A stretch of 64,000 bases of DNA from Escherichia coli (lineage in GTDB: Bacteria > Pseudomonadota > Gammaproteobacteria > Enterobacterales > Enterobacteriaceae): assembly GCF_003334385.1 (NCBI RefSeq), contig NZ_QOWN01000025.1. The stretch is one strand, 5' to 3'. Of this stretch, positions 45,433 to 56,594 are shown piece after piece (the first letter of the stretch is position 1; each line of letters begins with the position of its first letter). The position numbers were made by a program, and so were the translations under genes. Under the pieces are notes generated by a model. That model ran no database searches and was not told the DNA's origin. It saw only the letters and a program-made list of their open reading frames with translations.

Positions 45433-45512
45433 GCGTTTCTGATTCATTGATTAAAGGCCAGGCAGTAACATTACTGACTGGCCTCAGATTGTTGACCAAG
45501 TGCGCGTTGTAC

Positions 45513-45628
45513 ACGCCGGATGCGGCGTGAACGCCTTATCCGGCCTACGAAATCGTGCTAATTCAATATATTGTGGGCTCCACGTAGGCCTGATAAGCGT
45601 AGCGCATCAGGCAGTTTTGCGTTTGTCA
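45513..45628. repeat. REP-linker-REP (RIP/BIME-like) element, copy A
   Basis: GCCGGATGCGGCGTGAACGCCTTATCCGGCCTAC - AAATCGTGCTAATTCAATATATTG - GTAGGCCTGATAAGCGTAGCGCATCAGGC; flanked by near-identical 21-nt hairpin motifs at 45463..45483 and 45645..45665. Confidence 0.7.
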
Positions 45629-45671
45629 GCACTCTCAGACCAGCCAGTAACATTACTGACTGGCCTTTTTA

Positions 45672-46976
45672 TTACTTCTGCTTTAACGCCGCATACACCT
45701 GATCAACTACCCAACCATAAGTTGCAATCGGCAACTGACCGCTTTCGAACATATTGGGATTCTTTTGCGGATCGGCAACCGGCGAATGTGGCTTGTTGCT
45801 TAACATCACAATCGTCATATGATTCACCGGATCGATAACGGTCACCGTTCCGGTCCAGCCAGTGTGACCGTAGGTTTGCGGGCTTGCCAGCGTGCCAAAC
45901 GTCGGCGTCATGGTGGCATTACCATTCACGCGCCAGCCGAGGCCAAAAGTGGCATCTTCCTTAGAGCTGGTGGTGAACATCTTCACCGTTTCCGCATTGA
46001 ACAGCTGCACATCACCATAGCCCCCGCCGTTCAGCATCGTTTGCATTAACACCGCAATATCGCCGGTATTGGAAAACAAACCTGCGTGCCCGGAAACGCC
46101 GCCCATCGAATAAAAGGCTTTTTCATCGTGCACCTGACCCCAGAGAGTGGAGGTGCGGATATTCGGGAAATGGATCACGCCATCGCGGGTATTGCCGTTC
46201 AATTCCGTGGCGGCAATTTGTTGCGGTTTAAAGCCTTTCAGCAGCGGGTTAAATACCGTATGTGTCAGGCCGAGCGGGCGATAAATCGACTCTTCAACAT
46301 AGCGGTCAAGCGGCTGACCGGTAACCGACTCGACGATAAATCCAAGCAGCATATAATCGACATCGCTGTAGATATGTTTGCTGCCGGGCTGATATTCCAG
46401 CGGCGTGCGCTTGATCATCTCCAGCGTCTGGCCTTTATCCTGGGAATATAACGCGCCCGCGACCGCTTTATTCGGGTATTGCGGATCTGCCGGGAAACCG
46501 CCGCTGTGATGCAGCAGGTCAGAAATCCGCAGGGTGTTTTTGCCTTTAATGGTGTCATTTGGACTATCGGCAAACCCCGGAATATATTTCGCAATCCGAT
46601 CGTCAGGATGCAGTTTGCCTTCGCTCATCAGCTTTTGCAGGGCGAAGTTCGTGGCGTACATTTTGGTGTTTGAGGCCAGGTCATACAGCGTCCCGGTGGT
46701 GGCTTTGACAGGCTGTTCCATCAACACGCTGCCATCGTACTTTTTCGCCGCTCCCCAGGCTTTGCGATACACAATCTGATTATCTTTAATGATCAGCAGG
46801 TTTACGCTGGGATAACCGACATCAACTTGCTGGCTAATCCAGCGATCCATCTGGTTAAGCCGTTCGACGTTAAACCCTGCTTTCTCTGGCGAGCTTTCTG
46901 TCAGAACAGGGTATTTTGCGGCGCTGACGCTACAACTAACAGCCAGCAGAGAAAGATAGAGCATTGTCCGTTTCAT
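45672..46976 (-). CDS. yfeW: penicillin-binding protein 4B (class C beta-lactamase fold)
   Basis: ORF 45672..47063; ATG 46976 gives MKRTMLYLSLLAVSCSVSA (434 aa); SxxK motif (SNTK). Confidence 0.85.
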   Translation of the reverse strand: MKRTMLYLSLLAVSCSVSAAKYPVLTESSPEKAGFNVERLNQMDRWISQQVDVGYPSVNLLIIKDNQIVYRKAWGAAKKYDGSVLMEQPVKATTGTLYDLASNTKMYATNFALQKLMSEGKLHPDDRIAKYIPGFADSPNDTIKGKNTLRISDLLHHSGGFPADPQYPNKAVAGALYSQDKGQTLEMIKRTPLEYQPGSKHIYSDVDYMLLGFIVESVTGQPLDRYVEESIYRPLGLTHTVFNPLLKGFKPQQIAATELNGNTRDGVIHFPNIRTSTLWGQVHDEKAFYSMGGVSGHAGLFSNTGDIAVLMQTMLNGGGYGDVQLFNAETVKMFTTSSKEDATFGLGWRVNGNATMTPTFGTLASPQTYGHTGWTGTVTVIDPVNHMTIVMLSNKPHSPVADPQKNPNMFESGQLPIATYGWVVDQVYAALKQK

Positions 46977-46980
46977 GATA

Positions 46981-48405
46981 TCAGTCCAGATTGACGTTAC
47001 GGCAGCCAAAGAGCGTGGTGAAAATAAACCCGCAAACCCATGCCACCAGAATCCCGCCAGCATAAACCGCCATGGCCGGAAGGATGCCTTGTGCGGAAGT
47101 CATCAGCGGCAGCGCTACCAGACCAGACGGCCCAAAGGCGCTGTTTAAGCCCATCGGCAGACCCCACCAGGCTATCAGGCCGATAAACAAACCGCCCGCC
47201 GCGCCGCCTAAACAGGCGGTAACAAACGGCTTCATGCGGGGCAGGGTGACACCGTAAATCAGCGGTTCACCAACGCCCAGCAGGCCGGGAATAATCGCCT
47301 CGCGTACCTGACTGCGTAGCGCACTGTGCGGTTGCGCCCGCCAGTAGAGTGCCAGCGCCGCGCCCACCTGGCCCGCGCCTGCCATTGAAAGGATGAGAAA
47401 TAAGCTGTTGAATCCCTGGCTGTCCATTAACGCGAGGTAAACAGGAATAAAGCCCTGATGCACGCCAAATACCACGGCGATCAGGAACAGCCCGGCTAAA
47501 ACCGCACAACCGAACGGATTACTGTTCAGGTGCATAAACAGCCATGACATACCTTCGAATAACCAGCCACCCAGCGGCATAATGATCAGGTACGCAAGCG
47601 TAGCGGTGATCAGCAGGGTGATTAACGAGGTCAGCAGCATGTCGAGATCGTCCGGCATAAAGCGGCGCACCATGCCTTCAATGCGGGCGCAGGCCCACGC
47701 GGCAATCAGCACGCCGATAATATTGCCGCGCGGATCGATGGGCAGACCAAAGAAATCGTGAAAACCGGCGTAGTAACCGGTGGTCGCTGCGGGGTTATAA
47801 CCGAGCAAAAAGAGCGCGGCGATAATTGCGCCATTTACGCCCGTGCCGCCAAATGCCTGGGCGGCGTTATAGCCCACCAGAATCACCAGGAAAGTGAACA
47901 AACCTTTGCTGAACACCTTCATAAAATTCAGCGCATCGGGTAGTGTTCCCTGAGCATCTGCCGGAACGTGCATCACCGTGGCAATTAACGTCGCTATCCC
48001 CAGCAGCAGACCGGCGGCAATAAAACCGGGGATCAGCGGCGTGAAGATGGTGGCGAATTTGGCGAGAAATTGTTGCACGCCGGAGGTTTGTTTGGCTTTT
48101 AACTGACGTTTGTTCTGGGCGGCGATTTCTGCGGCATCCTGTACCGGTGCTTCTCCCAGCAGCTCGCTCATCGCTTTTGCGGCACGATGCGCTTTACCAG
48201 GCCCAAAAACGACCTGCACCTGGTCGCTGGTCAAAATGACGCCCTTCACGCCTTCCAGCGTTTTGATATTGGGATCAACCAGTGAACTGTCATGTACACC
48301 CAGACGCAGGCGCGTCATACAGTTACCACAACTGGCGATATTTCCCGGTCCGCCGACACGGGTAAGAATGGTGTTCAGAAGTTCACTGCTGATCTCTTTG
48401 GCCAT
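46981..48405 (-). CDS. murP: PTS N-acetylmuramic acid-specific EIIBC component
   Basis: 474 aa; N-terminal EIIB Cys motif ([11 protein letters not shown]) then EIIC membrane domain. Confidence 0.9.
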
Positions 48406-48408
48406 GGG

Positions 48409-55414: not shown

Positions 55415-55431
55415 TAATGGCAAGGTTTGTA

Positions 55432-55472
55432 ACCTGTAGACCTGATAAGACGCGCAAGCGTCGCATCAGGCA
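55432..55472. repeat. REP element inside the cysA-cysM spacer
   Basis: GACCTGATAAGACGCGCAAGCGTCGCATCAGGC. Confidence 0.6.
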
Positions 55473-55494
55473 ACACCACGTATGGATAGAGATC

Positions 55495-56406
55495 GTGAGT
55501 ACATTAGAACAAACAATAGGCAATACGCCTCTGGTGAAGTTGCAGCGAATGGGGCCGGATAACGGCAGTGAAGTGTGGTTAAAACTGGAAGGCAATAACC
55601 CGGCAGGTTCGGTGAAAGATCGTGCGGCACTTTCGATGATCGTCGAGGCGGAAAAGCGCGGGGAAATTAAACCGGGTGATGTCTTAATCGAAGCCACCAG
55701 TGGTAACACCGGCATTGCGCTGGCAATGATTGCCGCGCTGAAAGGCTATCGCATGAAATTGCTGATGCCCGACAACATGAGCCAGGAACGCCGTGCGGCG
55801 ATGCGTGCTTATGGTGCGGAACTGATTCTTGTCACCAAAGAGCAGGGCATGGAAGGTGCGCGCGATCTGGCGCTGGAGATGGCGAATCGTGGCGAAGGAA
55901 AGCTGCTCGATCAGTTCAATAATCCCGATAACCCTTATGCGCATTACACCACCACTGGGCCGGAAATCTGGCAGCAAACCGGCGGGCGCATCACTCATTT
56001 TGTCTCCAGCATGGGGACGACCGGCACTATCACCGGCGTCTCACGCTTTATGCGCGAACAATCCAAACCGGTGACCATTGTCGGCCTGCAACCGGAAGAG
56101 GGCAGCAGCATTCCCGGCATTCGCCGCTGGCCTACGGAATATCTGCCGGGGATTTTCAACGCTTCTCTGGTGGATGAGGTGCTGGATATTCATCAGCGCG
56201 ATGCGGAAAACACCATGCGCGAACTGGCGGTGCGGGAAGGAATATTCTGTGGCGTCAGCTCCGGCGGCGCGGTTGCCGGAGCACTGCGGGTGGCAAAAGC
56301 TAACCCTGACGCGGTGGTGGTGGCGATCATCTGCGATCGTGGCGATCGCTACCTTTCTACCGGGGTGTTTGGGGAAGAGCATTTTAGCCAGGGGGCGGGG
56401 ATTTAA
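55495..56406 (+). CDS. cysM: cysteine synthase B
   Basis: ORF 55417..56406 spans the REP; GTG at 55495 gives (M)STLEQTIGNTPLVKL (303 aa), PLP-dependent. Confidence 0.85.
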   Translation: MSTLEQTIGNTPLVKLQRMGPDNGSEVWLKLEGNNPAGSVKDRAALSMIVEAEKRGEIKPGDVLIEATSGNTGIALAMIAALKGYRMKLLMPDNMSQERRAAMRAYGAELILVTKEQGMEGARDLALEMANRGEGKLLDQFNNPDNPYAHYTTTGPEIWQQTGGRITHFVSSMGTTGTITGVSRFMREQSKPVTIVGLQPEEGSSIPGIRRWPTEYLPGIFNASLVDEVLDIHQRDAENTMRELAVREGIFCGVSSGGAVAGALRVAKANPDAVVVAIICDRGDRYLSTGVFGEEHFSQGAGI

Positions 56407-56428
56407 GGATTAATAGCATCGGAGACTG

Positions 56429-56543
56429 ATGACAAACGCAAAACTGCCTGATGCGCTACGCTTATCAGGCCTACAAGGTTTCTGCAATATATTGAATTAG
56501 CACGATTTTGTAGGCCGGATAAGGCGTTTACGCCGCATCCGGC
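56429..56543. repeat. REP-linker-REP (RIP/BIME-like) element, copy B (inverted relative to copy A)
   Basis: reverse complement is about 90% identical to 45513..45628, including the linker AAATCGTGCTAATTCAATATATTG. Confidence 0.7.
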
Positions 56544-56594
56544 ATAAACAAAGCGCACTTTTTTAACAGTTGTTGCTGCCGACAAATGCAGTAT

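Follow-up and report, generated by a model that had tools for sequence, protein, structure and literature searches.

Two inverted BIME-1/RIP elements on either side of the yfeW-cysM genes of Escherichia coli K-12, and the hairpins repeated at the ends of family members

When two similar repeats face each other across a block of genes, do they form a pair with a function of its own, or are they two members of a dispersed family that happen to be neighbors? The question is raised by a 64,000 nt stretch of Escherichia coli DNA (NCBI RefSeq assembly GCF_003334385.1, contig NZ_QOWN01000025.1), termed here the window, in which two elements built of repetitive extragenic palindromes (REPs) stand about 11 kb apart in inverted orientation. 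Identity to E. coli K-12 derivatives is 100%, and the window is in reverse orientation to MG1655. One element, the left copy, is situated between yfeX and yfeW(pbp4B), and the other, the right copy, between cysM and yfeS; at each site the two genes are convergent. In MG1655 coordinates the left site is at about 2,549,51x and the right at about 2,538,57x. The genes enclosed are yfeW(pbp4B)-murP-murQ-murR-ucpA-cysPUWAM, the order already given in an earlier note that had been made from the nucleotide letters of this DNA. Both elements are almost certainly ordinary copies of BIME-1 (bacterial interspersed mosaic element 1), also termed RIP, and their inverted pairing and 11-kb spacing are coincidental. 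The significance of the pair as a bracket, an inversion substrate or a domain boundary is not supported.

Anatomy and family membership of the two copies

The similarity between the two copies is real and far beyond chance. Repeat finding in the window returns two inverted arms of 150 nt, 45490-45639 and 56419-56568, which are 87% complementary. The earlier note had put the likeness at about 90% over about 115 bp, and pairwise alignment agrees: 105 of 114 aligned bases are identical between 45513-45628 and the reverse complement of 56429-56543. The note's description of the repeat as REP, linker and REP also holds, but its extent of ~115 bp is too short, the conserved unit being about 154 nt (45484-45637 and 56422-56572). 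Over this full 154-nt element the left and right copies have the same base at 133 of 154 positions, and the longest exact run is 45 nt (45584-45628). The 24-nt linker sequence AAATCGTGCTAATTCAATATATTG has just two exact occurrences in the window, 45550-45573 (+) and 56485-56508 (-); 100 shuffles of the window predict none, even with three mismatches allowed. The likeness is not limited to the REP consensus with unrelated linkers, a possibility that the note itself had raised, as the exact 24-nt linker is shared.

The left copy, 45484..45637 on the plus strand, is full length at 154 nt and is identical to the family consensus (positions 0-154) at 139 of 154 bases. Its left outer flank, or "A" side (45484..45514), carries a 16-nt terminal inverted repeat, TCAGATTGTTGACCAA, and is conserved at unrelated loci. 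This is followed by a Y-type REP, or palindromic unit, GCCGGATGCGGCGTGAACGCCTTATCCGGCCTAC (45515..45548); a hairpin of this type gives a sub-threshold alignment with the first hairpin of Rfam's naRNA4 model. The L linker of 35 nt (45549..45583) contains a sequence resembling a binding site for integration host factor (IHF), ATTCAATATATTG, at 45561-45573. A Z1-type REP, GTAGGCCTGATAAGCGTAGCGCATCAGGC (45584..45612), is the same in both copies, and comparison with family loci delimits the right outer flank, or "B" side, AGTTTTGCGTTTGTCAGCACTCTCA (45613..45637). The right copy (56422..56572, minus strand, without the flanking hairpin repeat described below) has the same parts, located base by base like those of the left copy: B flank (56422-56445), Z1 REP (56446-56474), L linker of 35 nt (56475-56509) with the IHF-like site at 56485-56497, Y REP (56510-56543) and, on the yfeS side, a degenerate A flank (56544-56572).

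The ends of the family consensus, TCAGATTGTTGACAAA and TTTGTCATCAGTCTCA, read as imperfect inverted repeats that are complementary at 13 of 16 positions. Since the outer flanks are thus inverted repeats of each other, the whole element is one long imperfect palindrome. Folded as single-stranded DNA, the left copy with its hairpins forms one long hairpin of -54.5 kcal/mol (z = -7.4), and the right copy forms one of -30.2 kcal/mol (z = -3.8). The IHF-like sequence ATTCAATATATTG agrees with the IHF consensus WATCAANNNNTTR at eight of nine specified positions in both copies.

A pair of REPs around an IHF-binding linker is the long-known, dispersed E. coli repeat termed BIME-1, RIP or RIB, which is the enterobacterial equivalent of the REPIN. 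The original descriptions are said to be those of Gilson in 1991, Boccard and Prentki in 1993, Oppenheim in 1993 and Bachellier in 1994 and 1997. BIME-1 consists of a Y and a Z1 REP in inverse orientation with a long, well-conserved L linker that frequently has an IHF site (PMC3333891; PMC2817692); IHF binding was shown for the family by Boccard & Prentki 1993 (cited in PMC3333891). The element is ~140 bp in size, and isolates may have or lack a given copy (PMC1187871, citing Bachellier 1997); the literature describes it as single-copy units, not tandem ones. Both copies in the window have the inverted Y and Z1 REPs, the 35-nt linker, the site of IHF consensus type and the intergenic position between convergent genes, and both vary among isolates by presence or absence of the whole element. 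Each is a single unit in the window. Parts, length (~140-154 bp), extragenic 3' position and polymorphism among isolates are the same as in the BIME-1/RIP literature, so that the RIP-like assignment of the earlier note stands, by anatomy and family comparison for the element and by motif for its IHF site. The features are thus already known, and nothing in the K-12 copies differs from published BIME-1.

Two open reading frames (ORFs), 45500..45838 (+) and 56403..56585 (-), cover the copies but are present only as mechanical ORFs. The MG1655 RefSeq annotation, which for this region lists coding sequences only, has none at either site. In the strain records listed for the left and for the right junction, the match covers the flanking genes only, except in record H23, which has a hypothetical protein beside yfeX. 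The ORFs are translations of repeat DNA, as had been noted earlier, and for annotation this is of some practical value, as is the finding that the Rfam ES036 match here is the BIME-1 linker.

The ES036 match raises the question of whether the elements are primarily small-RNA genes, ES036 (also termed CssrF) being made from the linker and naRNA-like RNAs from the REPs, with the DNA repeat secondary. At 56467-56509 the right copy scores 40.9 bits, which exceeds the gathering score of 37.6, and about 80% of REPs are transcribed (PMC4550694). The ES036 model (RF02751) is just 43 nt, however, and its consensus AAAuUUGUGCAAAUUCAAUAAAUUGCAGGAaAUACGUAGGCCU spans under a third of the element. Because it consists of the L motif and the first bases of Z1, a match restates family membership. 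The left copy, at 27.3 bits, is below the gathering score, and matches to naRNA4 reach 36-40 bits against a threshold of 59.5. A promoter scan finds no promoter-like site inside either element, and transcription would be read-through from flanking genes. A primary role as small-RNA genes is therefore unlikely; in effect, RF02751 matches mark BIME-1 elements (here 56467-56509 and 45549-45591), and Rfam thus backs the family assignment independently. A text search of the literature for ES036 returned grant numbers only.

As members of the family, the two copies probably behave like the rest of it. Both are in the family's normal place, the 3' intergenic space between convergent genes, where they may be co-transcribed as a 3'-untranslated region (UTR) structure with IHF bound at the linker. 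The REP hairpins would be targets for gyrase, Pol I, HU with naRNA, and REP-specific insertion sequence (IS) elements, and the spread of both copies would depend on the REP-associated tyrosine transposase. This is based on what the literature gives for the family: IHF binds at L, most REPs are transcribed, gyrase, Pol I and HU interact with them, IS elements target them, and TnpA_REP cleaves BIMEs and transfers their strands in vitro (PMC3333891; PMC4550694; PMC1525189).

An insertion into the left element is found in strain LAM_HS, where IS621, of the IS110 family, is located inside the Z1 REP at GTAG^GCCTGATAAG (L143, ~788-2066; window 45587/45588). Strain KW21 likewise has an IS621 annotated in this region. 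IS621 is known to target REPs (PMC1525189). The LAM_HS insertion is a natural example of this targeting, and the REP is a live IS target.

The pair within its family and across E. coli genomes

Is this pair more closely related than any two family members would be? Family members were recovered from metagenome contigs with a linker-blind pattern (the Y 3' end, 26-42 arbitrary bases and the Z1 5' end), and an exact-linker scan of one genome per species was the second source. The linker-blind pattern was adopted because the exact-linker scan, the linker being variable, gave few E. coli copies. After collapsing by flanks there are 70 distinct loci; for the identity statistics, 37 full-length elements, each from a locus of its own, were aligned. 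Pairwise identity in the family has a median of 85.3%, with 5th-95th percentiles of 74.9-91.3%; left versus right is 87.8%. The right copy is ninth of 36 among the left copy's relatives, two of those ahead of it being orthologues, and the left copy is 17th of 36 among the right copy's relatives. An element from an unrelated locus in a Pseudocitrobacter metagenome-assembled genome is 95% identical to the right copy. The linker core TGCAAATTCAATATATTGCAG is 80-99% conserved across the 37 distinct loci. In this 37-element sample the two copies are placed apart and not as sisters.

Copy number gives a similar picture. A linker-only BLAST search finds 6-40 linker-like sites per complete E. coli genome, with a median of 21, and 36 in a K-12 MG1655 record. 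The size of the BIME-1 population varies several-fold between lineages; several clinical strains display 7-13 linker-like sites only. At the 36-copy density, by our arithmetic, chance alone would give a K-12 genome about 1.5 inverted pairs spaced within 11 kb. Nothing singles out this pair among the at least 36 K-12 copies.

Some observations nevertheless weigh against reading the two copies as an unremarkable sample of BIME-1. Matches to the IHF motif with no more than one mismatch are found at 0.83 per kb in the window, and because such matches are common the motif alone is weak evidence. The typing of the two hairpins as Y and Z1, the latter with the short loop GCGTAGCGC, follows what we take to be the published consensus sequences. 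A seven-unit array that a cryptic Escherichia has between yfeX and yfeW, described below, conflicts with the single-copy units of the literature. In both copies, moreover, the linker is of the less common T type, GTGCTAATTC and not GTGCAAATTC, which hints at closer kinship within the family. The GTGCTAATTC variant is also present at unrelated Pseudocitrobacter loci.

This rarer variant, together with the identical 45-nt stretch of Z1 plus B, is what would favor a recent event specific to the two copies, a duplication or a gene conversion, as the source of their likeness. Against it, six non-orthologous loci are closer to the left copy, and four loci (L007, L009, L050 and L008) are closer to the right copy, at 92-95%. 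In addition, the 3' third of the linker is wholly different between the two, TGGGCTCCAC versus CAGAAACCTT. Both sites are also occupied in the cryptic Escherichia clade represented by Escherichia sp. MOD1-EC7003, at ~93% genome identity, and neither insertion is therefore recent. A recent event of this kind appears extremely improbable, and ordinary family membership accounts for the likeness.

Among the 5,426 complete E. coli genomes surveyed, 1,400 have an intact left junction and 1,382 an intact right one. Both copies are dispensable, semi-mobile DNA, each in about a quarter of E. coli genomes. Classes were counted in an even sample of 60 rows, taken down the ranking of matches to a 12.8-kb query. 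Both copies are present in about 11 of the 60 and neither in about half; right only is seen in H87 and H89 and left only in H90, so that all four classes are represented. The B2-type class in this sample is without yfeW as well. The two copies have been gained and lost independently among strains. About a fifth of the sampled records (ST131, ATCC 25922 and similar) are without yfeW/pbp4B, window ~45672-46976, and their match to the 12.8-kb query spans 9,455 bp only.

The earlier note had also pointed to the inverted repeats as a substrate for inversion by homologous recombination. In its stronger form, the proposal is that recombination between a functional pair inverts the 11-kb yfeW-cysM block, or that the block moves like a composite element. 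Identity at 133 of 154 positions with a 45-nt exact stretch is in principle long enough for RecA pairing, and after an inversion the genes at both junctions would still be convergent and all of them whole. A chimeric query made of the yfeX flank, the element and the reverse complement of the cysM end represents the predicted inversion junction, yet this junction is intact in none of the 5,426 complete genomes, of which roughly 1,000 or more have both copies. Genomes without either or both copies still have the gene block in colinear order, so that it is not cargo of the repeats; nor are the two copies more alike than random family members. The probability of a functional inverted-repeat pair is close to nil. 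The idea of a meaningful bracket is not supported either, as the identity is within the family range, the copies are lost independently, and the linker is a family motif.

A related proposal is that the pair forms the ends of a topological or nucleoid loop, in which IHF at the linkers or cruciform bridging by HU and naRNA anchors an 11-kb domain with the cys and mur genes. BIMEs have been proposed as barriers to supercoil diffusion and as domain boundaries (PMC6907758; PMC1475751), and HU with naRNA4 connects cruciform-forming REPs pairwise (PMC4550694). Moreover, the IHF-type site is conserved in both copies, and their hairpin potential is strong. The pair, however, is in no way distinct among at least 36 copies, most E. 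coli have these genes without one or both copies, and mutational evidence cited in PMC1475751 speaks against IHF organizing loop domains. An IHF role in nucleoid organization, which the earlier note had also suggested, is a family-level idea from the literature; an IHF chromatin immunoprecipitation sequencing paper (PMC3333857) does not mention REPs. That this particular pair anchors a loop is very improbable. As two of several dozen BIME-1/RIP copies in K-12, the pair is of little consequence as a bracket, and it has no detectable effect in the 5,426 genomes.

Hairpins repeated at the ends of the elements

The sole item that merits follow-up is a footprint at the ends of the elements. On each side of the left element stands one copy of a G+C-rich palindrome of 30 nt, both in the same direction. 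Copy 1, AGGCCAGGCAGTAACATTACTGACTGGCCT (45455..45484, plus strand), is identical to the sole hairpin of the empty site in O157, and copy 2 (45637..45666) is in direct orientation, identical to copy 1 at 28 of 30 bases, and is followed by TTTTTATT. The start-to-start spacing of the hairpins is 182 nt, which is the size of the indel between strains and also the tandem period in Escherichia sp. MOD1-EC7003. Among the records listed, those of the most common alternative class have a yfeX-yfeW spacer shorter by exactly 182 bp; the O157 empty allele has one copy of the palindrome and then a T-run. Because of the 182-bp indel and the single hairpin of the empty allele, the variable unit is the element plus one hairpin. 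The hairpin appears to be terminator-like; this is based on a reading of the G+C-rich palindrome, followed by TTTTTATT, between convergent genes. A terminator scan of the window did not flag the duplicated hairpin, whose bulged 30-nt stem is probably outside the rules of the scan.

The same arrangement is found elsewhere in the family. A survey of 35 full-length elements from distinct loci with enough flank, with mismatched left and right flank pairs as the control, shows a locus-specific palindrome directly repeated at both element ends, within a few bases, at 15 of 35 loci, compared with 1% in controls. Besides the left copy, these include L008, L009, L012, L013, L022, L033, L049, L052, L057, L062, L081, L082 and L099, and three further loci have degenerate flanking repeats. 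The repeat is 16-30 nt in length and tracks the size of the local palindrome. Three loci have exact empty alleles, each with a single hairpin. At pitA-uspB, occupied and empty alleles differ by 173 bp, which is the element plus one hairpin. The third locus, L082, has a DUF2569 gene on one side and fbp on the other; when occupied it carries a perfect repeat of 22 nt, and when empty a lone hairpin. An empty allele of L082 was found, but among complete E. coli genomes there is no occupied one.

The hairpin copies are direct and not inverted, since loop asymmetries are preserved. Two other origins were considered. Snap-back, or inverted duplication of the flank, was rejected as the loop asymmetries show direct repeats, and the idea that the hairpin travels with the element was rejected as the hairpins are locus-specific and match the empty allele. 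A separate observation concerns the loop of the DUF2569-fbp hairpin, upstream of fbp, which is flipped between the occupied allele (L082, 11942-11963 and 11760-11781) and the empty allele (L147, ~402-423), GGAGCAATCC versus GGATTGCTCC. The stem is retained, as if the center of the palindrome had been inverted.

The unit also varies in tandem. At the yfeX-yfeW site of Escherichia sp. MOD1-EC7003 there are seven 182-bp tandem units (TRF period 182), which extend over L015 11475-12413 and L016 1-365 (contig NZ_PTRE01000114.1). Escherichia sp. E1V33 (L021) has two tandem units at yfeX-yfeW, and two other loci are also tandem. The flanking direct hairpin copies and the seven-unit array go beyond BIME-1 as described in the literature searched.

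Perhaps BIME-1 integrates at the hairpins of intrinsic terminators in a structure-directed manner that duplicates the whole hairpin, the unit then varying in tandem from zero to seven at yfeX-yfeW. This is a tentative proposal that we regard as possible but rather doubtful. The mechanism is speculative: staggered cleavage may take place at the two feet of an extruded cruciform, which would be spatially adjacent and one palindrome apart in sequence, and fill-in would follow. The resulting target-site duplication would be 16-30 nt, its length set by the target palindrome and not by the enzyme. The anatomy of the footprint itself is firm, and the duplication may arise at insertion. Transposition of the IS200/IS605 type is described as making no target duplication (PMC2817692; PMC3333891), and since enzymes of this type are the presumed mobilizers, the hairpin footprint is unexplained by the usual model. 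No description of flanking hairpin duplication was found in the literature searched, the primary BIME papers being outside that search; novelty cannot be claimed, as these older papers may describe it.

In vitro, the REP-associated transposase has shown cleavage and strand transfer but no insertion pathway. The palindrome-sized terminator duplication, the empty sites and the tandem amplification together constitute a footprint that any mechanism of spread must reproduce. Each insertion would also part the terminator stem from its T-tract and put the element in the 3' UTR of the flanking genes.

The footprint may be compared with those of other small mobile repeats. To our knowledge no cognate DDE transposase is known for BIME-1, and the sub-terminal REP hairpins point to a Y1/HUH enzyme. 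In REPIN/RAYT systems (PMC3337134; PMC8049555; PMC3333891), as here, inverted REPs and paired flanks fold as one hairpin, and there is a dispersed, slowly turning-over population whose copy number differs between lineages, here from 6 to 40. The RAYT gene of this genome would be outside the 64-kb window. REPIN spacers are highly diverse, whereas the BIME-1 spacer is highly conserved and has an IHF-type site, at which binding is known for the family; and many BIME-1 copies have 16-30-nt flanking direct repeats, whereas IS200/IS605-type movement leaves none. Miniature inverted-repeat transposable elements (MITEs), for example the neisserial Correia element with its IHF site (PMC3184786), resemble BIME-1 in several respects: a length of ~150 bp, lack of coding capacity, terminal inverted repeats of 16 bp that are imperfect, target DNA directly repeated on both sides, an IHF site within the element, a 3' intergenic location and exact empty-site alleles. 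Of the MITE signatures, terminal inverted repeats are thus present (13 of 16 positions), but a target-site duplication of fixed length is not; at the 15 of 35 loci that have a flanking repeat, it is 16-30 nt long and corresponds to the palindrome of the locus.

BIME-2, for example REP325, which encodes naRNA4 (PMC4550694), shares with BIME-1 the Y-type REP hairpin, the extragenic location and, in some genomes, tandem arrays. It differs in having Y and Z2 over short linkers, strong gyrase binding and no IHF linker. Examples in the window, distinct from the two elements, are at ~8810-8890 and 33542-33735.

The cysM-yfeS locus and other repeats in the window

The right copy is lost together with a gene. 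In the records listed without the right copy, cysM directly adjoins yfeK, and by comparison with strain D8 about 960 bp, comprising the element and yfeS (window 56408-57365), are missing. The gene yfeS encodes a WGR-domain protein. A metagenome contig, L133, represents a third haplotype that has the full-length element beside cysM and a different hairpin in place of yfeS. Because the element of L133 is full length without yfeS, the junction with yfeS probably falls within the outer flank of the element. In strain L144 an IS1 separates yfeS from yfeK.

Further REP or BIME copies in the window are found at 55439-55472, 4149-4189, 8810-8890, 20173-20206 and 33542-33735. The cysA-cysM spacer has a single REP with a long loop, Z2-like, and 33542-33735 is a two-unit tandem BIME with a 100-nt period. 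The ucpA-cysP spacer contains a 146-bp insertion (51292-51437) with inverted repeats of ~18 nt, GAACTAAGTTCACCAGGC ... GCCTGTTGAACCAAGTTC, that is absent in LAM_HS. It is a low-copy repeat, present at 1-8 places per E. coli genome with a median of 5, and is possibly the "RSA" repeat of K-12.

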